The position numbers were made by a program, and so were the translations under genes. From positions 128,402-192,401 of the forward strand of contig CAVZOL010000004.1 of assembly GCA_963776895.1 (NCBI GenBank): a stretch of DNA of 64,000 nt, read 5' to 3'. The notes under the pieces are model-generated. The model had not been told where the DNA came from and did no database searches. It worked only from the letters and a program-made list of their open reading frames with translations. The DNA comes from Ignavibacteriota bacterium. GTDB taxonomy: Bacteria; Bacteroidota; Ignavibacteria; Palsa-1295. Positions 39,248 through 50,666 of the stretch are shown here, piece by piece; positions within the stretch are counted from its first letter, which is position 1, and each line of letters starts with the position of its first letter.

Positions 39248-40012
39248 CTAATGTGAGTGCTTAGTTTGGGTGGTGTCGGTGGAATGGAGGGTGTCGCTTG
39301 GAATATACTCCCAATGCCCCTGGCTAAATCCAGTACTGAAGCCGGTGGGAACCCATTTCCTGACCCGCGTGTCCGGTACTACGTGGGCTGTATCCACGGC
39401 CGGCATCGCTGCTCTGGCAGTAGTGTCTGGCACAATGGTAGTAGTCTCCGGCGCTGCGCTGTTCATGTCGGTTTTATAGAGCGTTGCGTTCGTAGAACCG
39501 ATTACTGCACCAACCACACCACCTACCGTAGCGCCAAGCAGCGCGCCTCCCACGATAGAAAAAAGCTGGCCGAACCCATTGCCGATCGCAGTGCCAAATC
39601 CGTTGGCAACCCCCTCAATGATGTTATCCGAAGGAGGGGGAGGCGTCGGGACAAACAATGCATTGCCGATAACGCCCCCCAGGAGACCTCCGGCTATAAC
39701 TCCAAGAAAACCGCCTGCAAATCCTTGCGGATTCGCTATTTTAATGCAGGCCACGCTATCGGTCGGCACCGAAACTTCCTTGCCATGCTCGGTTAATTGC
39801 CATCTCGTAGAATCCTTTCGAATGGCAACCGCATAATAATTTCCGGAAATTCCGTTCGATAAGGTAACGCACGCACCATGAAGTGTGCTTTGTCGCAAAA
39901 TGTCCTCGGAGGTCTGTGGATCGCTGCTTAAATAATTGGTCGTTGTACAGCCCGAAACCGCCATCCATACCAGTGCTAACAATGTGAAAAATGGGAATTT
40001 TGAATGTGCCAT
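39248..40012 (-). CDS. Hypothetical lipoprotein with glycine-zipper segments
   Basis: Lipobox AVSGC and GxxxG-rich hydrophobic stretches. Confidence 0.7.
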   Translation of the reverse strand: MAHSKFPFFTLLALVWMAVSGCTTTNYLSSDPQTSEDILRQSTLHGACVTLSNGISGNYYAVAIRKDSTRWQLTEHGKEVSVPTDSVACIKIANPQGFAGGFLGVIAGGLLGGVIGNALFVPTPPPPSDNIIEGVANGFGTAIGNGFGQLFSIVGGALLGATVGGVVGAVIGSTNATLYKTDMNSAAPETTTIVPDTTARAAMPAVDTAHVVPDTRVRKWVPTGFSTGFSQGHWEYIPSDTLHSTDTTQTKHSH

Positions 40013-40180: not shown

Positions 40181-40669
40181 ATGGCTGACCTACAAAAATC
40201 CATCGAAATCGGACTTACCCCGAAAGACCGTGACGGCGTTACCCGCATCCTCAATGTGCTGCTCTCCGACGAATTCCTGCTCTATACCAAAACCTGGAAG
40301 TTCCATTGGAACGTAACGGGACTGAGCTTCCACGATCTGCACCTGTTCTTAGAAGCACAATATGAAGAGCTTGACGGCTTTGTCGATGACGTCGCCGAGC
40401 GCGCCCGGTCGATCGGCGGCATCGCATTCGGGACGATGCGGGAGTTTTTAGATAATACTCGTTTGAAGGAGAATCCCGGAAAAAACCCCGAAGCCGAAGC
40501 AATGGTCGCAGTCCTTTTGGCCGATCACGAGCATATCATCCAATCCCTGCGCGCCGATCTCGAAACCGTGCAGAATAAATACCACGACGTAGGAACTTGC
40601 GATTTCCTCACCGGCCTCATGGAAAAACACGAAAAAATGGCATGGATGCTGCGAGCGTATTTGCAGTAG
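40181..40669 (+). CDS. dps: Dps-family DNA protection during starvation protein
   Basis: KTWKFHWNVTG...HDLHLFLEAQYEEL...DDVAERAR and HEKMAWMLRA. Confidence 0.96.
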   Translation: MADLQKSIEIGLTPKDRDGVTRILNVLLSDEFLLYTKTWKFHWNVTGLSFHDLHLFLEAQYEELDGFVDDVAERARSIGGIAFGTMREFLDNTRLKENPGKNPEAEAMVAVLLADHEHIIQSLRADLETVQNKYHDVGTCDFLTGLMEKHEKMAWMLRAYLQ

Positions 40670-40685: not shown

Positions 40686-41171
40686 TCAGTGGTCCATCGG
40701 CGATGGACGCCCCGTCCAACGGGGCGTCCGTGATTGCTCCGCATATTTTCGTAGCAGATACGCTCGGTAAAGCTTCCCAACCAGCTTTGCATCGCCATGG
40801 GTCACAGTGCCGTTGCCAACAAAGGAGCATACGGCATCTCGTGAAAGATGACGAATCGACTTCGCTTCGCTAAAAAGCGCATCGAGCTTAGCTAAAAATT
40901 CCTCCGACCTGCGAAAGCCTCTAAATCTCCATTCTTTATCCAGCGCTTCGATATACGCTTGCAGCCACGGTAATTTCGGTCGGCCTTCATTATACACCAG
41001 CAACGCCAATGGATGATTCCGCCATCCGATCTTCGCTTCCGGCTCGCGCATTCGTTTAATTGCGATCTGGCCAATTTGATACGCTTCAACAACCTGCTTG
41101 TTCAAGCGGCTATCATCTAAGAATCGTGCTGTTGCTGAAAGATCGTTAGGGAAGGGTAGAAAAAGATTCAT
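40686..41171 (-). CDS. Pyrimidine dimer DNA glycosylase / T4 endonuclease V-like (MSMEG_6728-like) protein
   Basis: MNLFLPFP...ARFLDDSRLNKQVVEAYQI...GWRNHP...EWRFRG. Confidence 0.75.
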   Translation of the reverse strand: MNLFLPFPNDLSATARFLDDSRLNKQVVEAYQIGQIAIKRMREPEAKIGWRNHPLALLVYNEGRPKLPWLQAYIEALDKEWRFRGFRRSEEFLAKLDALFSEAKSIRHLSRDAVCSFVGNGTVTHGDAKLVGKLYRAYLLRKYAEQSRTPRWTGRPSPMDH

Positions 41172-41241: not shown

Positions 41242-41508
41242 TTATGGCAAGAGTGACGCAAACTTCTCTATCGCCTTACGGTTCACAATGACGATCACCT
41301 GACGGCCTTCTTTCTCCATCACAACGAGCTTGGCATCCGCAAGTATTTTTAGATGATGTGAGACAGCCGGTTGTGAAAGCTGAATGTCCTTCCCAACCTC
41401 ACCACAACTGACAGGACCCCGCTTGACCAACTCACGCAGAATTTTCACCCGCGTTTTATCTGCAAGCGCTTTCGCGATCCTGACAAGTTTATCGTCCCGG
41501 TCTTTCAT
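41242..41508 (-). CDS. ArsR/SmtB-family transcriptional regulator
   Basis: AKALADKTRVKIL...SCGEV...LSQPAVSHHLKILADAKLV...EGRQV. Confidence 0.93.
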   Translation of the reverse strand: MKDRDDKLVRIAKALADKTRVKILRELVKRGPVSCGEVGKDIQLSQPAVSHHLKILADAKLVVMEKEGRQVIVIVNRKAIEKFASLLP

Positions 41509-42564: not shown

Positions 42565-42834
42565 CTAATACACCTTATCGTGCGGACCAATATCTTCAAG
42601 GATCGCAGTGCCGGGATCGGCAAATGAAAACACTACGCGAAGATGCCAGGTCAGTGAAAACGCCCAGCTCTCTTTGAGTTTGCCTTTTAATTTATGCGTG
42701 GCAAGCTGCGGGTCGTAGGGATCTTGAATGAATTGGAGCAATTTTTCTCGAAAGGTCTTTTCAAGAATGGGGCGGCCTTGCACCAGGTGCCTATAGGCCC
42801 GTTTAAAGCGAGGAGATTCGGTAACGCGAATCAT
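42565..42834 (-). CDS. RelE/StbE (YafQ-like) mRNA interferase toxin
   Basis: SPRFKRAYRHL...DPYDPQLATHKLKG...LRVVF...DIGPHDKVY. Confidence 0.9.
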   Translation of the reverse strand: MIRVTESPRFKRAYRHLVQGRPILEKTFREKLLQFIQDPYDPQLATHKLKGKLKESWAFSLTWHLRVVFSFADPGTAILEDIGPHDKVY

Positions 42835-43043
42835 TCGGCTTCGAGACGCCGAATGAGTTCATCAATATCTGAGGTTGGTGCGGGCAGCGCATGTTCGTCC
42901 CACAATCGACGCGCTTCTAAATGCCCGCGATAGAGTTCATCGCGAGCCGCGTCCGTCAATTCTTGTTCGAGAACTGCCTTCAGTTCCGCTTTTTCTATGA
43001 CAGGAAGCGTGCGTACCTCTTCGACCAGATCTGCGAATATCAT
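42831..43043 (-). CDS. Putative cognate antitoxin
   Basis: Small acidic ORF overlapping the toxin start by 4 nt (ATGA); ends SDIDELIRRLEAE. Confidence 0.75.
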   Translation of the reverse strand: MIFADLVEEVRTLPVIEKAELKAVLEQELTDAARDELYRGHLEARRLWDEHALPAPTSDIDELIRRLEAE

Positions 43044-43066
43044 GCTATTATAAGTGAGAATTTGCA

Positions 43067-43101
43067 CGAATCATTCCGCACCAAACGAGCTACGGCGCAA
43101 C
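43067..43101. repeat. 35-bp direct repeat, copy 1 (copy 2 at 44194-44228)
   Basis: CGAATCATTCCGCACCAAACGAGCTACGGCGCAAC versus CGAATCATTCCGCGCCGAACGGGCTACGACGCAAC, 31/35 identical. Confidence 0.85.
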
Positions 43102-43103
43102 CG

Positions 43104-43658
43104 CTACCTCCTCGGCACATACCGCATCGCCACCGCTCCTGAGGCATACTCCAGCCGGCTCACGAGCCGCAAGTCGATACGCGCGGATAGCCCTGCAAAG
43201 AGCGTCGGGCCGTGGCCCGCTATTCGGGGATGCACCACGAACTCATACTCATCGATGAGTCCCAGCTCCGCGAGGGCGAGCGGAAGCTTCACGCCTCCCG
43301 TCAGCAATCCCTTACCTGGCTGCTGCTTCAGTTCCCGAACAAAATTCCCCAGATCCCCGCGCACCAGCTCCGCGTTCCAATCGACGCGGGTGAGCGTGCT
43401 CGACACGACATACTTCTTTGCCGCGTCGATCTGGCGCGCGAACGGTTCCATCCAGGGTTTCATCCAATCCGGAAGCACACCCTCTCGCGAGCGCCACGCG
43501 GCTTCCATCATTTCATACGTCACGCGGCCAAAGAGCAGCACATCGGCCTGCGCGAGGGTTTCCGCTGCGTGACGGTGCAGCTCTTCATCCGCGATCACTT
43601 CACGATGATCGCAGCACCCGTCCAGGGTGACGTTGATGGAATACCGGAGAGGTCGCAT
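43104..43658 (-). CDS. Dihydrofolate reductase-like (RibD C-terminal domain) protein
   Basis: YSINVTLDG, LLFGRVTYEMM, KYVVSSTL and LIDEYEFVVHPRIAGHG. Confidence 0.92.
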   Translation of the reverse strand: MRPLRYSINVTLDGCCDHREVIADEELHRHAAETLAQADVLLFGRVTYEMMEAAWRSREGVLPDWMKPWMEPFARQIDAAKKYVVSSTLTRVDWNAELVRGDLGNFVRELKQQPGKGLLTGGVKLPLALAELGLIDEYEFVVHPRIAGHGPTLFAGLSARIDLRLVSRLEYASGAVAMRYVPRR

Positions 43659-43734
43659 AATGTTTGCCGCCGATAACTTTAGATTAGAAGTGTTCCAAAA
43701 AACGACCACGGTCGGCCCACCGTTCCGGCGGGCA

Positions 43735-43944
43735 TCACAACTTCCGAAATTCTTCGAGCGTCAGGCCGGCTTGCTTGAGAATATTGCGGAATGTTCCATC
43801 TGGAACATCGCCGGTATGCATAGCAACCATGGTTTGCCGTCCGTCGGGATGGCGAAGAAAACAGTGTGAAGTCCCTTTGTGCCGTTCGACTTCGAAGCCG
43901 GCACGCTTTAGCTTCGCGAGAACATCACGCGACTTGAAGGGCAT
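43735..43944 (-). CDS. hicA: HicA toxin
   Basis: LKRAGFEVERHKGTSH...HPDGRQTMVAMH..DVPDGTFRNILKQAG. Confidence 0.9.
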   Translation of the reverse strand: MPFKSRDVLAKLKRAGFEVERHKGTSHCFLRHPDGRQTMVAMHTGDVPDGTFRNILKQAGLTLEEFRKL

Positions 43945-44170
43945 CGTCTGCGATTTCGAGCGTACTGAAAAACACTTCCCGGCTCGATGGCACAGGCTCC
44001 CCATGCTCGCGTTTAACCTGCAGCCATCCCGTCACGAGATCCTCGGCTGCGGCACGAGCACCATCAATGCCAAGCCCATGCGTAGTTAAGTCCAGCGCGG
44101 GAATATGCGCATAGTAATAGCCCTCAAAGTTAGGCTCCTCACACTTTTCGAAAACAAGTCCGTACGTCAT
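43925..44170 (-). CDS. hicB: HicB antitoxin (short form)
   Basis: YYAHIPALDLTTHG..IDGARAAAEDLV..WL...GEPVP. Confidence 0.88.
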   Translation of the reverse strand: MTYGLVFEKCEEPNFEGYYYAHIPALDLTTHGLGIDGARAAAEDLVTGWLQVKREHGEPVPSSREVFFSTLEIADDALQVA

Positions 44171-44193
44171 ACTTATCTAAGCCAAAGAAAACG

Positions 44194-44228
44194 CGAATCA
44201 TTCCGCGCCGAACGGGCTACGACGCAAC
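44194..44228. repeat. 35-bp direct repeat, copy 2
   Basis: 31/35 identical to 43067-43101; directly abuts the REP-tRNA repeat. Confidence 0.85.
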
Positions 44229-44292
44229 GTGTGACGGGAAGCGCTGCTTCCCGGTGCGCGCATAGCTCAGATAGTAAGAACGTCGGCCTTAT
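44229..44292 (+). repeat. 64-bp direct repeat (REP-like hairpin + tRNA 5' fragment), copy 1; copy 2 at 45186-45249
   Basis: 60/64 identical by manual alignment. Confidence 0.9.
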
Positions 44293-44308
44293 AAGCCGAA
44301 GGGCACCG
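44256..44308 (+). pseudogene. Truncated tRNA-like sequence with anticodon TAT (Ile-UAU), lacking the T-loop and 3' acceptor strand
   Basis: GCGCGCA-TA-GCTC-AGATAGTAA-GAAC-G-TCGGC-CTTATAA-GCCGA-AGGGC-ACCG: canonical spacing of acceptor 5' strand, D arm, anticodon arm and variable loop. Confidence 0.7.
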
Positions 44309-44376
44309 CGATCACTTCACGATGATCGCAGCACCCGTCCAGGGTGACGTTGATGGAATACCGAAGAGGTCGCATA
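44306..44376 (-). pseudogene. 71-bp duplicate of the 5' end of the DHFR-like gene
   Basis: 70/71 identical to 43589-43659, including the ATG. Confidence 0.9.
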
Positions 44377-44377
44377 T

Positions 44378-45109
44378 TTATTTCTTTTTGGCCTTCATAA
44401 TTGTTTTGAGCTTCTTCGAATTCCACTCGACAAGTTTCGCTTTGCCGCTGTCGATGTCATCTCTCATTTTGTTGAGACTTTCGGCAAACTTCTTTGCTGT
44501 TTCAGGCGGACCGTAAAAAGACAGTTCCCAAATAATCCCGTAAAGAATATCGCCGAGCGTAAACTCTGGGTTTCTAAATGTCGCGATTAGTTCGTTCTTC
44601 TTCGGCAATTCGCGGCGGATCTCAATCGTCTTTCGAAGTTTGAGCGGATAGGATGTGAGCTTCCACGGCTCGGTAAGTTCAACTGCAAACCGAACGGTAT
44701 CACCCTTCTTCATCCCAGAACCATCTTTGAAATCTTTTTTCAGCACACCAACGCCATCGAACGAGAGTCGTCGAAAACCGCTCGTCGATGCCGGATACTT
44801 TTTACCATAATCATGCTCGGCAATATCGCAGTAGAGTTCAAGAAAATCTATGTCGTCGGTTTTCGGATCGCGCTTGAATCGCTTGCTCAGGCCGCTCGTC
44901 ACGATCTCCTTACACCAATTCCCGAATATCGTATCGTATAGCTTGAGGTTGCGGTTTAGCAGATGAAAAACATCGCGAAGCATTATATCGTCCGCGAGTT
45001 CGCAATGATCGAAAAGGTGCGTGGGCGCAGCAACGGTGCGATCGCGGTAGTTCGTCCGTCCGTACTCATGTCCAACGAGCTTGCCGCCTTTTTTGAGCAG
45101 TAGTTCCAT
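44378..45109 (-). CDS. Hypothetical protein
   Basis: 243-aa ORF with a conserved-looking C-terminal FTLGDILYGIIWELSFYGPPE; function not recognised. Confidence 0.75.
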   Translation of the reverse strand: MELLLKKGGKLVGHEYGRTNYRDRTVAAPTHLFDHCELADDIMLRDVFHLLNRNLKLYDTIFGNWCKEIVTSGLSKRFKRDPKTDDIDFLELYCDIAEHDYGKKYPASTSGFRRLSFDGVGVLKKDFKDGSGMKKGDTVRFAVELTEPWKLTSYPLKLRKTIEIRRELPKKNELIATFRNPEFTLGDILYGIIWELSFYGPPETAKKFAESLNKMRDDIDSGKAKLVEWNSKKLKTIMKAKKK

Positions 45110-45146
45110 TGGATTCTAAACTTACCGATAACACTTCTCGTTCAGC

Positions 45147-45211
45147 CAGTCAAGCAGCGCTTGACTGCACACGCTACTATTTGTTGTGTGCCGGGAAGCG
45201 CTGCTTCCCGG
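45147..45211. repeat. Inverted pair of REP-like hairpins
   Basis: CAGTCAAGCAGCGCTTGACTGCACAC, a 13-bp spacer, then GTGTGCCGGGAAGCGCTGCTTCCCGG. Confidence 0.8.
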
Positions 45212-45212
45212 A

Positions 45213-45249
45213 GCGCGCATAGCTCAGGTAGTAAGAGCGTCGGCCTTAT
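45213..45249 (+). pseudogene. tRNA-like 5' half ending exactly after the TAT anticodon
   Basis: GCGCGCA-TA-GCTC-AGGTAGTAA-GAGC-G-TCGGC-CTTAT with a perfect D stem. Confidence 0.65.
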
Positions 45250-45268: not shown

Positions 45269-47080
45269 TTACTTGGCACTCAGGTCCGGCCACATAGGCC
45301 CAGGCTCTTCAGGAGGTTCCTGAATGTATGGAAGCTCAGCAATTTTTATTCTTATCAGCGCAAACTTCTCAATTATTTCAGGATCAGGGTTCGAATTCTT
45401 CGATGAGTAGAACGAATGTGCATCTTCGAATTGCGCCGTTAGCCATTTAATGGTTTGAGATGAATTCTTTCCAACTTTGACTAGATCCATGCCCACTCTC
45501 AAAAAATACTCGACCACATACAATTGCGACTCCTTAAACTCACGCCTCCGGCTTTCTTTTGTCGAAAGAATTCTGCCAAGGGTTCCAAGCTCATTCAAAG
45601 TCCAATAATCGACAGGATATTTGCTCCGGATGATGTACGAAATAGTGCTACAATATACGATGACGGCGAAAGCGTAGTAATCTTCCTCCTTCTCCAAAAT
45701 CTCTTCTATGTCACTTGGAGACAGAGGGAGCGATAATGACGGGAATCTTTGAACTTCCATATCTATCCTCCTCTTCGCGAGCTCAGCCATAGCCATTAAA
45801 ATATTATTAGCAAAGGACCTTTTAAGAAGGTTATTCACAGAAGATTCACGAACGTCGAATAATAGGGTATGCAAGTTGACTGATACGGCGTCGAGTTGTG
45901 CGCTGTTGTTTTTCCGAGCTGCCGCTTCACCCCACTCTTGAAGTTTCGCAACGTAATCGCTGGTCATCAATTTCCAGTGATACTCGAACTTAAAGTCTAG
46001 CTTCTTCGGCGGAAGCTCATTCTTCGAATAGTAAGTCAATGAAATTTCCTCCGCTGGGGGACAGTTAAGCAGAAACTGCTCTCTCATCGACTCATTCAAG
46101 ACTTCAAATCCTACCAACATCGGATCTTCGTAACCCTCATCATTGAGAGAACTGATGTATTCCCCAACAAAGCTCTCAAGTTCATGGAAATCTCCTAGAT
46201 ATAACTTGTTCAATGCTATGTGACGGTAAATCCACCTTACATTTCTCCATAGCGCCTCAAGTGTCCTTGTATCCTTCTTTCCAATGGCCTCTGACATGAT
46301 GCTCTTCCACACGAGAAGCAGTTTGTTGAAAGCCTGATAAATTCGATCCCCAGTAGGTGTGTTTCCGAGGTGCGATAGCACGACTAAAGTCGTTTCCCTC
46401 ATTATCGCCTGCGCCTCAGCAGTATCGCCATCTCGGACGTATCGAATTGCTATATCTCTCAAGCGATTCACAGGGTTTCCTTGATATTCAACCAGTGAGT
46501 CCCAAGTATTCATGGTCACGTTTTGCAGATTATGGTCTCCTTGTCCAAGCGTTTTCTTAAATGCTTCTACCGCTTCCTCAATAGGAGCAGTCGAAGTGCT
46601 CATTTCCAAAACGTCATAGCAAATAGGGAACAAGGTGACAAGTGCGAGCAGTGCTAGAATCGTATCATAATAATATAGAGTGAGGCTGGTATTATTCGAA
46701 ATACCATCATATCTGATGAGCGTGATAACACTCAGAAAGATTGCAGCAACGGATAAAGTGATCCATCGAGCAAAATTCTTATTTGAGAAAAAACCCTTTA
46801 GAGCATGAGGACCGAGTTTTCGTTTAAGAACTTCAAATGTGATGACGACGAAAGCTACCACTACCGCCACCGTGCTAGTGAGAATTGTGCATAGCAGTTC
46901 TAATATCTTTGATGGCTCTTTGTGATTGGACAGTCCCAGGAAATCCGGAAACAGGCCAAGATTCATAATAGAGATAGCCAGATAAATCAGGGTCAGCAGT
47001 GCTAACAGCCGAAGGTCATAGACACTTATGAAATCATTCAGCCTACGATTCTTAATTAATGTTAAATGTTTCTTGCTCAT
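45269..47080 (-). CDS. Hypothetical membrane protein (DUF2254-like N-terminal TM region, helical C-terminus)
   Basis: About four N-terminal TM helices followed by a long alpha-helical region; AT-richer than nrdJ. Confidence 0.7.
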   Translation of the reverse strand: MSKKHLTLIKNRRLNDFISVYDLRLLALLTLIYLAISIMNLGLFPDFLGLSNHKEPSKILELLCTILTSTVAVVVAFVVITFEVLKRKLGPHALKGFFSNKNFARWITLSVAAIFLSVITLIRYDGISNNTSLTLYYYDTILALLALVTLFPICYDVLEMSTSTAPIEEAVEAFKKTLGQGDHNLQNVTMNTWDSLVEYQGNPVNRLRDIAIRYVRDGDTAEAQAIMRETTLVVLSHLGNTPTGDRIYQAFNKLLLVWKSIMSEAIGKKDTRTLEALWRNVRWIYRHIALNKLYLGDFHELESFVGEYISSLNDEGYEDPMLVGFEVLNESMREQFLLNCPPAEEISLTYYSKNELPPKKLDFKFEYHWKLMTSDYVAKLQEWGEAAARKNNSAQLDAVSVNLHTLLFDVRESSVNNLLKRSFANNILMAMAELAKRRIDMEVQRFPSLSLPLSPSDIEEILEKEEDYYAFAVIVYCSTISYIIRSKYPVDYWTLNELGTLGRILSTKESRRREFKESQLYVVEYFLRVGMDLVKVGKNSSQTIKWLTAQFEDAHSFYSSKNSNPDPEIIEKFALIRIKIAELPYIQEPPEEPGPMWPDLSAK

Positions 47081-47135: not shown

Positions 47136-50100
47136 TTACGAACACCCGCTCGTCGTGCCGCAATCGTCGCAGACGGTGCAGGCGCCGTTGCGCTTTACAC
47201 GCATGGAGCCGCAGGCGGAGCATTGTTCGCCGGTGTAACCTTTGCTGCGCGCTTCGCTGCGGAGGCTTTGCAGTGTCGCGGTTCCTTTCGGCAGCGTGGT
47301 GAGCGGCGAGTGGCTGAGGGCCATTTCGGGTTCCTCAATGCGTTCGTTGCGGAGGCGTTCGAGATTCGCATCTTCGCTGACCGTTTGTGTCGCAATGGCG
47401 TCCGTTGGGGGTGTCGAAATAACATTTCGACCCACACCGTTATCTTTTGGTTCATCCACGGCTTTGACATGCACGAAATCCTGACGGCCAAGATATTCGT
47501 AGCCCAGCGCGCGGAAAACATAATCCAAAATACTCGTCGCGTTCTTGATCGCTTCGTGGCCCTGCACGGCGCCGGCGGGTTCGAAACGCGTGAACGTGAA
47601 GGTATCGACCAGCTCTTCGAGCGGCACGCCGTATTGCAGCGCCTTCGAAGTAAGCACGGCAAAACAGTTCACAAGCCCCTTGAATGACGCGCCTTCCTTG
47701 TACATATCGATGAAGATCTCGCCTAAGGAACCATCTTCGTATTCGCCGGTGCGGAGATACACTTTGTGCCCGCCTACGACGGCCTCGCGCACGAATCCGT
47801 GGCGCTTCGTCGGTAGGCGGTGGCGGCGCAATTCCGGCGGCATCACTGCTGCCTGTGCTTCGAGCAGTGTATGCAGCTTTGCCGCGTCGATCGTCTCGTT
47901 CGCGGGATCTTCCACATCGTTAAAGAGCACTTCTTCCGCCAGATCGGCATCCTCATTGGAAGAATTGAGCGGCTGCGAAAGCTTGGAACCATCTCTGTAG
48001 AGCGCGTTGGCTTTCAAGCATAATTTCCAGGAATCGAAATACGCTTTCGAGACGTCCGAGACCGAAGCCTCGTTCGGCATGTTGATCGTCTTCGAAATAG
48101 CTCCCGAAATGAACGGCTGCGCGGCGGCCATCATGCGAATGTGCGCTTCATACGGAATGAAACGGGTTCCGTAGCGTCCGCATTTGTTCGCGCAATCGAA
48201 AATTTGCAGATGTTCGTCTTTCAGTTCCGGCGCGCCTTCGAGCGTCATCGTGCCGCAGACGTAATCGTTCGCAGTCTGAACTTCCTCGCGCGTGAACCCA
48301 AGCGAGTGCAGCATATTGAAATTCGCATCCGTGAGTTGCGAGGGCGTAAAGCCAAGCTTCACGCAGAACTCCTCGCCGAGCGTCCATTTGTTGAACGCAA
48401 ATTTCAGATCGAACACGTTATCGCAGAGCTTTTCAACCTCGTCGATCTTCTCATCGGTAAATCCTTTCGCCTTGAGCGATGCGCGGTTGATCGCCGGGCA
48501 ACCGACGAGCGTGCCGTGTCCCTTCGAATATTTTTCGATCTCCTCGATCTGCTTGTCGTTATATCCAAGTTTCGTCAGCGCTTTATGCACCGATTGATTG
48601 ACGATCTTAAAATATCCGCCGCCCGCGAGCTTCTTGAATTTCACGATCGCGAAATCCGGCTCGATGCCGGTGGTGTCGCAATCCATAACAAGCCCGATGG
48701 TTCCCGTCGGCGCGATGACGGTCGTTTGCGCGTTGCGGTAACCATATTTTTCGCCGAGCTTGTAGGCGCGATCCCACGCATCGCGCGCGGCTTGCAGCAA
48801 GTCTTCCGGGCAATGCTCCGGCGTAATGCCCATCGGCTTGATGGTAAGCTGTTCGTAGCGTTCCGGCGAAGCATTATACGCCGCAAGCTTATGGTTCCGC
48901 ATGACGCGCAGCATGGCATCCTTGTTTGCTTCGTAGCGCGGAAAAGCTCCCAGATCTTTCGCCATTTCAGCAGATGCAGCGTAGGATTCGCCCGTCATGA
49001 TCGCAGAAAGCGCACCGGCAATGGCTAAGGCGCGTGGGGAATCATACGCGATTCCGGCCGTCATGAGAATAGTACCGAGATTTGCATAACCCAAACCAAG
49101 CGTACGGTAATCGTAGGAACCCTGCGCGATAGCGCGGGAAGGAAATTGCGCCATGAGCACGGAAATCTCCAGCACGATCGTCCATAAACGGACGGCGTGT
49201 TTGTAATCATCGAGCTTGAACGCGCCTGTCTCTTCATCGTAAAAATACGCGAGATTGAGCGAGGCAAGATTACACGCGGTGTCATCCAAGAACATATACT
49301 CCGAGCACGGATTGCTCGCGTTGATGCGGCCGTCGTTCGGGCAGGTGTGCCATTCGTTGATCGTCGTATCGTATTGCAAGCCGGGATCGGCAGAAGCCCA
49401 TGCGGAGAACGTGATCTTCTCCCACAGTTCTTTCGCCTTCACTTTCTTAGCGGCTTTGCCCGTCGTGCGGAACTTTAGCGTCCACTCGCCGTCGGTGAGA
49501 ACGGAGTGCATGAAATCATTCGTGACGCGAACGGAATTATTCGAATTCTGTCCCGACACCGTTTGATAGGCTTCGCCTTCGTAATGCGTGTCGAAGGTTT
49601 TGAAATCGATTTTATCGTAGCCCATCTCGACCATCCGCAAACAGCGAACGATGTAATTCATGGGAACTCCACGCGCAAGCGCCTTCTTGATCGCAATATC
49701 GAGATCATGATTATCCTTGCGGTCGGTGCCGCCATCGTTGGCGATCTTCATGATCATGTTGAGGAAGAGATCGCACACTTTCGATCCAGCGACGAGCGCG
49801 GCGACTTTCTGCTCTTCGAGCGCTTTCCATTCGATGAAGGTCTCAATATCCGGATGATCGATATCCAGAATGACCATCTTTGCCGCGCGGCGCGTCGTTC
49901 CACCGGATTTCACTGCTCCGGCAGCGCGGTCGTTAATTTTGAGGAAGCTCATCACGCCGGAAGCCGCCCCGCCGCCGGACACTTTTTCGCCTTCTCCACG
50001 AAGCGAGCTGAAGTTCGTTCCTGTGCCGGAACCATATTTGAAAATGCGTGCCTCGCGCGTAACGAGATCGAAAATGCCGCCTTCATTCAGCATATCATCC

Positions 50101-50666
50101 TTGATGGACTGAATAAAGCACGCGTGCGGCTGGGGATGCGTGTAGGCATCCGTCGAGCGCGTCATTTCGCCTGTTTTCGGATCGACATACCAGTGGCCCT
50201 GCGCGGTTCCCGTAATGCCATACGCCCACGCGATGCCTGTGTTAAACCATTGCGGCGAGTTCGGCGCAGCCATTTGGCGCAAGATCATGTAGGCGATCTC
50301 ATCATAGAATGCCTGCGCATCTTCTTTCGTATCGAAATAGCCATGCTCTTCGCCCCACGCGCGCCAGCATCCCGCCAGACGGTGCGCAACCTGTTTGATC
50401 GAACGTTCCGGCCCTGTGATAACATTGCCGTCCTTATCGCGGAGCAACGTGCCGAAGGTATCGTGCTGCGGCACACCCGCGCGGCGGAAATATTTCTGCG
50501 CCAAAATATCGGTCGCAACCTGCGACCAGTGCTTCGGCACCTCGATATCCTCCATGTTGAAGATGGGCTTGCCGTCGGGGTTGCGCAAAACGCTCGCGCG
50601 CGACGTGTATTGGAATTGATCGTAGGGAGTCGTCCCCGTTTGTGTGAATCTGCGTGTAATTTGCAT
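47136..50666 (-). CDS. nrdJ: Vitamin B12-dependent (class II) ribonucleotide reductase
   Basis: [56 protein letters not shown]-like domain and C-terminal CxxC..CxxC..SGCS; no intein seen. Confidence 0.97.

Follow-up and report, generated by a model that had tools for sequence, protein, structure and literature searches.

The stretch analysed here, hereafter the window, comprises 64,000 nucleotides of an Ignavibacteriota bacterium (assembly GCA_963776895.1, contig CAVZOL010000004.1, positions 128,402 to 192,401), and its subject of interest is the variable interval that lies between the ribonucleotide reductase gene nrdJ and a conserved group of ArsR, Pyr_excise and dps genes. The window belongs to the 259-kb contig C4 of a metagenome-assembled genome (MAG) that we designate G000; other G numbers denote related genomes, L numbers denote loci of relatives or metagenomes, and X1, X2, X4 and X6 denote public sequencing runs, which are distinct from the cargo gene X. 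Within this interval, the cargo consists of a hicBA toxin-antitoxin (TA) pair, a RelE/YafQ-like pair, a GNAT gene, a gene with a RibD_C domain and the two genes that we call X and Y, together with two units in which a repetitive extragenic palindromic (REP) hairpin is joined to the 5' part of a tRNA-like sequence with a UAU anticodon. An earlier note on this DNA had singled out the two units as delimiting a candidate new cassette-capture locus. We find that the repeats are real, that the tRNA-like sequence is confined to one locus, that the gene content at this locus turns over between genomes and that there is no recombinase nearby; in what sequence this arrangement came about, and by which type of recombination, is what we infer below.

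Repeat search of the window aligned 44229-44292 with 45186-45249 as a direct repeat with 60 of 64 bases equal (94%), in agreement with the earlier note, each unit comprising a REP hairpin (CGGGAAGC-GCT-GCTTCCCG, at 44235-44253 and 45192-45210) followed by the tRNA-like 5' part with the anticodon TAT. Exactly two occurrences of the 37-nt tRNA part were counted in the window, and no match to it turned up in shuffled sequence (0 of 100). Copy A retains the 5' strand of the acceptor stem, the D arm, the whole anticodon arm (loop CTTATAA) and the variable loop, continuing through TCGGC-CTTATAA-GCCGA until its likeness to relatives ends at 44304/44305, around linear nt 49-50, where the T stem is expected to start; copy B ends at 45249, the last base of the anticodon (linear nt 37), and both breaks are thus where they had been placed before. 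The T arm and the 3' strand of the acceptor stem are missing from both copies, and a complete cloverleaf is therefore absent from the window. Gene X sits between units A and B, so that this cargo has direct copies of a tRNA segment on either side. The REP hairpin of unit B and its degenerate partner form an inverted doublet (45152-45212), and a doublet with the tRNA-like sequence is also present in G006.

To place these units in a wider context, we compared 60 related genomes, comprising 14 other members of the genus (an uncultured genus of Ignavibacteriota) and 46 genomes outside the genus. The tRNA-like part was found in 6 of the 15 genus genomes, namely G000 itself, G009 (3 copies), G006 (2 copies) and G014, G001 and G013 (1 copy each); among the 46 genomes outside the genus, there was nothing beyond matches of 23-30 nt, a size expected by chance. 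In all five relatives the copies are always just downstream of nrdJ, as they are in the window, and no copy was found elsewhere in G000, a MAG of 12 contigs that is 80% complete. Rfam searches downstream of nrdJ in eight other genus members yielded no tRNA-like sequence (with 1.2 and 3.5 kb covered in G011 and G004, respectively). A pattern scan of metagenomes returned two contigs, L040 and L041, with the same kind of locus, and a scan of viral contigs found 0 with the tRNA-like sequence, the genome records matched being contigs of G009 and G014. On L041, two full-length tRNA-like copies flank hicBA, followed by relBE and RibD_C, and on L040 a copy cut at about nt 51 stands beside RibD_C. The break points differ among the copies (nt 37, ~50, ~51, ~56 and ~60-66), and cargo between direct tRNA-like copies has been seen three times, with different cargo each time: X in G000, relBE in G009 (between copies 1 and 3) and hicBA between the two full copies in L041. 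The unit therefore has other copies, parent-like copies and gene-content variation at its junctions, the three things whose absence the earlier note had named as grounds for discarding its proposal.

The gene content of the interval from nrdJ to ArsR/Pyr_excise/dps was different in all 13 relatives examined, so that comparison of the nrdJ-dps interval, as had been suggested, revealed turnover at these junctions in every one of them. The far flank (dps, Pyr_excise and ArsR) is common to G000 and G014, G008, G002, G007 and G012. The interval appears rich in defence- and TA-type genes. Defence-type genes in this interval include AIPR/AbiU (G001, G010), a ThsB-like TIR gene (G006), Schlafen (G009, and weakly in G012) and GmrSD (G007), with an AAA_15/21 ATPase in G004, an HNH effector-like protein in G008 and DUF4062 in G002 as further genes; the TA-type genes are HicA, RelE/YafQ-like, PIN, Gp49, DUF4258 and DUF2442. 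In G000, PADLOC found no recognised defence system in the hotspot, which holds TA pairs plus X and Y only. Neither PADLOC, PHROGs nor Pfam gave anything for gene X, or anything above cut-off for gene Y, the Pfam match of the latter to DUF2254 being below cut-off (E 0.0043). For both genes the Atlas supplied leads only, those for Y being feature matches to DUF2254 clusters (0.95-0.97). The modules relBE, hicBA, RibD_C and X keep their ends and change their order between genomes (G000 vs. L041 vs. G009). As an example, G000 and G002 share both ends of the hicBA block of ~640 nt (44229 and RibD_C codon 21-23), although the two blocks have 76% identity and differing flanks. The features of the window that bear on these comparisons are given in Table 1.

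Table 1. Positions of the repeat units, cargo genes and flanking genes in the window
Feature	Positions	Strand	Basis or remark
Dps/ferritin-like gene, far flank	40181-40669	+	Pfam and relatives
Pyr_excise gene, far flank	40686-41171	-	Pfam and relatives
ArsR-type helix-turn-helix gene, far flank	41242-41508	-	Pfam and relatives
relE/YafQ-like toxin	42565-42834	-	Same module beside tRNA-like copies in G009, G006 and L041
Antitoxin of the relE/YafQ-like toxin	42831-43067	-	Paired with the toxin at 42565-42834
RibD_C-domain gene, full length	43104-43658	-	Pfam PF01872, 52.6 bits
hicA	43735-44004	-	HicA_toxin, 60.2 bits
hicB-like gene	43925-44170	-	No Pfam match; weak UPF0150 match of the L041 homologue
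Short block upstream of hicB	44181-44216		94% over 36 nt in G009; 44190-44211 resembles the relE start at 42823-42844
REP hairpin, copy A	44229-44255	+	8-bp stem closed by a 3-nt loop, with a GTGTG foot
tRNA-like 5' part, copy A (anticodon TAT)	44256-44305	+	Rfam tRNA, 29.2 bits; no ARAGORN prediction
RibD_C orphan 5' fragment, from 1 nt upstream of ATG to codon 23	44306-44376	-	Adjoins the downstream end of gene X; second copy of the 71-nt repeat
Cargo gene X, 243 aa, no known family	44378-45109	-	Homologous genes in L040 and, at 52% identity, in this hotspot of G007
Degenerate inverted partner of REP copy B (REPIN-like doublet)	45152-45173	-	86% complementary
REP hairpin, copy B	45186-45212	+	Repeat and hairpin search
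tRNA-like 5' part, copy B	45213-45249	+	Ends after the anticodon, nt 37
Cargo gene Y, 603 aa, DUF2254-like membrane protein	45269-47080	-	Starts immediately past the nrdJ terminator
nrdJ, class II ribonucleotide reductase, conserved hotspot flank	47136-50666	-	Pfam; in 14 of 15 genus genomes

Some additional observations on this interval and its flanks were made in passing. The counterpart in G009 of the short block upstream of hicB (L025 12151-12186) stands before a lipoprotein gene. Beside dps, a lipoprotein-like gene of the window (39248-40012; no Pfam family) has tandem matches at 30-65% identity, with other open reading frames (ORFs) in between: three in G008 (L030 8226-10076) and four in G002 (L031 8469-11821). 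The hotspot of G010 (L034 418-873) contains five Acido-Lenti-1 RNA motifs within ~460 nt, three of which are above the gathering score (53.7, 49.8 and 40.1 bits); there is one sub-threshold match in G013 (L011 36-99) and none in the window.

Gene ends other than that of the tRNA-like sequence are also repeated at this locus. The duplicated gene start that had been reported is borne out, in that 43589-43659 (copy 1) and 44306-44376 (copy 2) are equal at 70 of 71 positions and correspond to the first 23 codons of RibD_C. Copy 2 directly abuts tRNA-like copy A, with the full RibD_C gene located 650 nt away, behind hicBA; by blastn, copy 2 is closer than copy 1 to G008 and G002 (98.6% over 70 nt). 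Truncated RibD_C starts comprise 23 codons in G000, 21 codons in G002 (L031 3273-3382) and ~40 codons in L040 (2784-2908), and a degenerate one is found in G012 (L033 3423-3566); the adjacency of X and the truncated RibD_C recurs in L040. At codons 16-23 (43589-43612 and, in copy 2, 44306-44329) the gene harbors the inverted repeat GCGATCA-N8-TGATCGC, and two of the breaks (codons 21 and 23) fall at this 7-bp repeat with its 8-nt spacer, a possibly fortuitous coincidence spotted post hoc. With regard to nrdJ, its last 35-79 nt, up to the stop codon, are copied inside the hotspot in 5 of 13 relatives, with three extra copies in G007 that share one left boundary (L035 647-707, 1312-1365 and 1905-1965) and one copy each in G008 (L030 816-853), G012 (L033 893-930), G010 (L034 5487-5521) and G014 (L026 12216-12294); another left boundary is common to G008, G012 and G010. 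Between such copies are units of 0.55-0.8 kb with PIN, Gp49/RelE-like, DUF4258 or DUF2442 genes. No extra copy of the nrdJ end was found in the window. Lastly, in G009 a 40-nt start of a GNAT gene (L025 10539-10578) is positioned 7 nt from a tRNA-like copy.

These duplicated gene ends might have arisen with no site-specific step at all, through homology-facilitated illegitimate recombination and unequal crossing-over, a route that we regard as possible, if doubtful, and nearly as likely as the explanation that we put forward below. Incoming DNA of a related strain would recombine within a conserved anchor (nrdJ, RibD_C or genes beyond), while its other end might join illegitimately, either a few tens of bases into the anchor of the recipient or where hairpins tend to form, e.g. 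in the anticodon arm, the REP, the terminator or the RibD_C inverted repeat; the short duplicated gene ends left behind could then act as portable homology for further exchange. Several features speak for such a route: 1) it requires no integrase, and none was found; 2) the break points are variable; 3) the duplicated piece is always the end of the anchor that faces the variable region, as exemplified by the 3' end of nrdJ, by the 5' end of RibD_C (G000, G002, L040 and G012) and by the 40-nt GNAT 5' piece in G009; 4) the order in G000, with X and the 23-codon RibD_C fragment joined to the truncated tRNA-like sequence, then REP, hicBA and the full RibD_C, is what one anchored and one illegitimate join would be expected to give; and 5) many junctions coincide with hairpins, be it in the anticodon loop, at the foot of the REP, where the nrdJ terminator ends or at the RibD_C inverted repeat. 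However, the shared left boundaries of the nrdJ-end copies (three in G007, and those of G008, G012 and G010) require inheritance plus unequal crossing-over, the whole tRNA-like copies around hicBA in L041 look more like duplication of a site, and junction A displays no microhomology, with one unexplained base between the partners.

Another reading of the same repeats would be a dedicated cassette system, in which the 47-nt tRNA-like module, the nrdJ-end copies and the RibD_C-start copies serve as sites of mini-cassettes of 0.6-2 kb for a recombinase encoded elsewhere in the genome. Such a system would insert, excise and reorder TA and defence cassettes at one platform, as an integron analogue whose gene-end or tRNA-mimic sites repair the target on insertion. 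It would account for the cassette-sized TA or single-defence-gene units that stand between repeated sites in several genomes, for the common ends of the hicBA block in two genomes whose flanks differ on both sides, for the permuted order of modules with preserved ends and for a tRNA-like 5' part that is more conserved than the neighbouring genes. Nevertheless, we deem it unlikely, given that no candidate enzyme was found, that the three kinds of site have no motif in common and break at variable points, that no copy lies outside a single locus in a single genus, that covariation and structure tests (see below) give no signal beyond descent and that known processes can explain the repeats.

As to what the tRNA-like sequence is, the Rfam tRNA model gave scores of 29.2 to 50.3 bits across the copies, with copy A at the lower end (E 0.052, gathering score 29). 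ARAGORN predicted 0 tRNAs in the window and none at eight relatives' loci, L040 and L041 being outside that run. Three or four copies are full length, all with a non-canonical T loop: the G014 copy scores 42.4 bits and has a perfect 7-bp acceptor stem, and the two copies of L041 score 50.3 and 38.8 bits, with 6 of 7 acceptor pairs in copy 1. In the 10 copies that retain a T loop, the loop reads N-G-(C/G/A)-A-A-N-N, with the U55 position being G in 9 of the 10 and G or A in all, and the D loop is devoid of the usual GG. An alignment of the five longest copies has 42 invariant columns out of 47 over nt 1-47, vs. 14 of 27 over nt 48-74; in most pairs, the 5' part is 92-97% identical as compared with 82-88% for the neighbouring genes. 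The invariance of nt 1-47 is not accounted for by simple decay and fits a shared identity block.

A search for a parent among the 50 tRNAs of G000 revealed no Ile-UAU tRNA and no close parent. When 35 genomes of the family were searched with a covariance model built from the five longest copies, only the known copies scored above the level of generic tRNAs, and the best canonical match (70.3 bits) was tRNA-Ile(GAU), verified in four genomes. Judging from its sequence, the element is a diverged, locus-bound relative of tRNA-Ile. Since G000 has both tilS (N-terminal domain, 192.9 bits with a cut-off of 93.6, on contig C2) and a CAU tRNA with an Ile-like body (C9:109910), the cell does not need a UAU tRNA, AUA being readable in the usual way. 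The proposed origin from a rare tRNA(Ile-UAU) accordingly stands as regards the Ile-like body with its UAU anticodon, but sits poorly with the deviant T loop, the lack of an ARAGORN prediction at the eight loci and the presence of the tilS route. The check for a parent tRNA or further units that had been suggested did locate more tRNA-like copies and near-intact parents (G014 and contig L041), with ARAGORN predicting no tRNA at the eight loci submitted to it.

Analysis of the cloverleaf showed no excess of covariation, with the paired cells reaching the observed value in 73 of 500 shuffles, and the fold energies of the tRNA-like copies were not unusual (z -1.5 to -1.7); these pair counts and fold energies provide no evidence of selection for structure. 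This bears on the idea that the sequence may be a working RNA, either a non-canonical tRNA-Ile(UAU) or a decoy or regulator for the adjacent RNase toxins (HicA, RelE/YafQ), with its copies kept for that purpose. In favor of this idea are the strong conservation of the 5' 47 nt, the retention of G at the U55 position in nine of the ten copies with a T loop and the TA modules that adjoin copies in G000 (copy A), G009, G006 and L041. On the other hand, G000 and G001 (there on one contig, in a genome 93% complete) have truncated copies only, ARAGORN was negative on every copy it was given, neither folding nor pairing is remarkable, tilS and the Ile-like CAU tRNA already cover AUA, and the copies of G014, G001 and G013 have no TA neighbour. 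We consider a working RNA very improbable. The decoy variant of the earlier note in particular has the neighbourhood as its sole support, many copies being truncated or without a TA neighbour.

Elsewhere in G000, ARAGORN reported an 84-nt tRNA with a long variable arm and the anticodon UUA, which would read the stop codon UAA (C1:163164-163325, outside the window); it starts 3 nt after a 75-nt 'tRNA-Ser(GCU)' and could be a suppressor-type tRNA or a mis-call. At C9:429603-430022, the 3' two-thirds of an initiator-type tRNA(CAU) are repeated ~270 nt beyond that tRNA, a duplication of the usual 3'-fragment kind, in contrast to the 5' fragments after nrdJ.

The REP hairpin has a history of its own. 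It occurs in 9 copies in G000 at ≤2 mismatches, and 3 of the 9 surround an ORF resembling a REP-associated tyrosine transposase (RAYT) gene outside the window (C1:312040-312711, within the REPtron-like region C1:311939-312711), with weak Y1_Tnp matches of 26.8 and 27.7 bits against a cut-off of 23. G000 therefore has what characterizes a REP/RAYT pair, namely a multi-copy palindromic unit and a Y1 transposase-type gene flanked by the same unit, subject to the weakness of the Y1_Tnp match. Six further Y1_Tnp matches are located elsewhere in this genome. Because the hairpin alone recurs at these 9 sites and in many contigs of related genomes, it is an ordinary genome-wide REP whose history is separate from that of the tRNA-like part. 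The unit of REP plus tRNA was not found to be dispersed beyond the locus, since other sites in G000 and its relatives match no more than its first 26 nt; the suggestion that REP mobilises a composite with the tRNA-like part is thus unsupported.

Independent DNA, in the form of contigs from other public soil runs (the best of which held 0.19 of the sampled window words), allowed us to examine the junctions; among RNA runs, the search gave none that contains the stretch. Junction B (45249/45250) is bridged by contigs of X1, X2 and X6, and a 239-nt contig of X4 is identical to 44068-44306, down to the final two bases, which are not tRNA-like. None of the contigs of these runs bridged junction A (44305/44306) by at least 31 nt on both sides; the right side of this junction, comprising the truncated RibD_C and X, is also seen in L040. 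An X1 contig has the REP doublet followed by tRNA-like sequence running past nt 37, from which it follows that the truncation by gene Y is polymorphic in nature. An apparent joint in X2 was rejected as a rearrangement, as it came from a diverged RibD_C gene mapped onto both repeat copies.

These data also speak to whether the two units are a REP/RAYT-mobilised composite or, alternatively, an artefact of MAG assembly in which strain variants were strung together via the 64-nt and 71-nt repeats. In line with either, the duplicated unit begins exactly at the REP foot, G000 has RAYT-like genes and REPs, its assembly is a 12-contig, 80%-complete MAG and junction A was left unbridged by independent contigs. 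However, REP plus tRNA never occurs away from the locus, junction B is bridged in three independent runs and the 44068-44306 segment is exact in a fourth, the 71-nt copies differ by one base with copy 2 closer to G008 and G002, so that copy 2 is no copy-paste of copy 1, and the X-RibD_C adjacency as well as other truncated RibD_C starts occur in other assemblies. A composite or an artefact is, in our view, quite improbable. Taken singly, neither a functional tRNA or decoy RNA, nor mobility driven by REP, nor misassembly is likely.

We then asked what might have brought the cargo in. Profile search of G000 found none of its 8 tyrosine-recombinase (PF00589), 3 serine-recombinase (PF00239) or 7 Y1-transposase (PF01797) matches on the 259-kb contig of the window, confirming that no integrase of these families is present there, and intI is likewise absent from this contig, as there is no tyrosine recombinase on it. 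No PF00589 match was found near the locus in G001 (a genome with three PF00589 genes in total), G006, G009, G013 or G014, and Pfam, PADLOC and PHROGs gave no recombinase or phage match among the neighbouring ORFs of no known family.

Taking these findings together, we tentatively propose, as the best explanation on hand and one that we rate at somewhat less than an even chance, that the stretch from nrdJ to ArsR/Pyr_excise/dps is an additive insertion hotspot for TA and defence genes on a non-canonical, tRNA-Ile-derived tRNA-like gene (UAU) that serves as the landing or recombination site, with recombinases acting in trans or since lost. We surmise that small cargo blocks entered at the tRNA-like sequence and at the nrdJ 3' end, that the recombinases for entry would have been supplied in trans or have since been lost, that every entry would have duplicated the site and that later deletions may have trimmed the site copies at differing points. 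Homologous exchange through the anchors (nrdJ, RibD_C and the tRNA-like sequence) might then have reshuffled blocks between strains. Units A and B would be paralogous leftovers of one copy of REP plus the tRNA-like sequence, with copy B presumably cut in the anticodon loop as gene Y replaced the 3' half of the tRNA, and copy A broken off at the T stem and linked to a superfluous copy of RibD_C, perhaps later reduced to 23 codons. REP itself would be a bystander of the genome's RAYT/REP family, having probably landed beside the tRNA-like gene before the duplication. Among the origins listed in the earlier note, serial scars at an atypical tRNA provide the best fit, as the unit has relatives, near-intact parents (G014, L041) and gene content that turns over at its junctions. 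In contrast, describing the locus as a new cassette-capture system is overstated, as hotspots with partial tRNAs and without mobility genes have already been described.

Several points weigh against this proposal of a tRNA-like landing site: 1) the part of the tRNA that is kept or duplicated is the 5' part or the whole gene, and the identity block of tRNA integrations is reportedly, in the account of Williams from 2002, usually the 3' part, starting from a fixed crossover point; 2) with break points ranging from nt 37 to ~66, a single crossover site is insufficient without extra deletions; 3) there is no recombinase near the locus in G000 or in the five relatives; 4) no element carrying the tRNA-like sequence next to an integrase was found, with 0 viral contigs and two metagenome contigs, both of the same locus type; and 5) junction A is supported by the present assembly and, beyond that, only by a contig reaching 1-2 nt across it.

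Should the proposed hotspot be correct, a little-studied soil phylum would keep a small, fast-turning store of TA and phage-defence genes at one chromosomal address without a visible mobility gene. The three kinds of short repeats that appear to repair the target (a tRNA-like gene, a gene 3' end and a gene 5' end) could help in finding integrase-less hotspots elsewhere, and the locus could serve to distinguish exchange of cassettes driven by short conserved anchors on their own from exchange driven by a recombinase in trans. In addition, X, Y and several of their neighbours in relatives, being of no known family, are candidates for new defence functions by virtue of position alone.

The nrdJ locus shares some features with several known systems. 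Integron cassette arrays and integrase-less attC clusters consist of tandem cassettes that are poor in promoters and carry one gene or a TA pair, with a recombination-site repeat bounding each of them and intI beside attI. Compared by description, the nrdJ locus likewise has single-gene or TA units bounded by repeated site-like sequences, but it has no intI on the contig, its repeats are tRNA-like or gene-end copies and the orientation of its genes is mixed. Cis-mobilizable elements (CIMEs) are stretches of DNA bounded by att repeats without an integrase of their own, resulting from tandem integration and decay; DNA at the nrdJ locus is similarly bounded by att-type repeats without its own integrase, but no partner integrative element was found at the site in the genus. 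REP/REPIN sequences with their RAYT are short palindromic hairpins with a conserved foot, present in several genomic copies and in inverted doublets. Here, the likeness consists of the doublet in inverted orientation (45152-45212) and of a Y1_Tnp-like gene with copies of this hairpin on its flanks, whereas G000 has only 9 copies and the tRNA-like part does not travel with REP.

Regarding the tRNA itself, tRNA-Ile(UAU) is found in bacteria without tilS such as Mycoplasma mobile (PMC3575796), and our element resembles it in having a UAU anticodon on an Ile-type body; G000 differs in having tilS, a non-canonical T loop and mostly truncated copies. The tycheposon islands of Prochlorococcus (bioRxiv 10.1101/2020.12.28.424599) have partial tRNAs scattered through them, and the nrdJ hotspot is like these islands in its fixed site by a tRNA-type sequence, its partial tRNA copies, its cargo without mobility genes and a repeated integration that pushes older material inward. 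The differences are that no integrase-bearing element was seen in the genomes that we examined, that a non-canonical tRNA-like gene provides the site, that duplication affects its 5' part or, in some cases, all of it and that the units measure 0.6-2 kb. Core defence hotspots have no mobility gene whatsoever at 29-47% of sites (PMC10250203), and the nrdJ hotspot is akin to the core defence hotspots cDHS1/2 of Pseudomonas aeruginosa (PMC10250203) and to the hotspots of E. coli (PMC10121019) in its conserved flanks with content that varies per genome, in the tRNA-type gene at its border and in the many sites without a detectable mobility gene. It departs from these in measuring 3-6 kb, in having been seen in MAGs of one genus and in that G000 has no recognised defence system. 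The nrdJ locus does not look like a new machine or class, but rather like a variant of the known additive defence/TA hotspots that occur at tRNA genes and between core genes.

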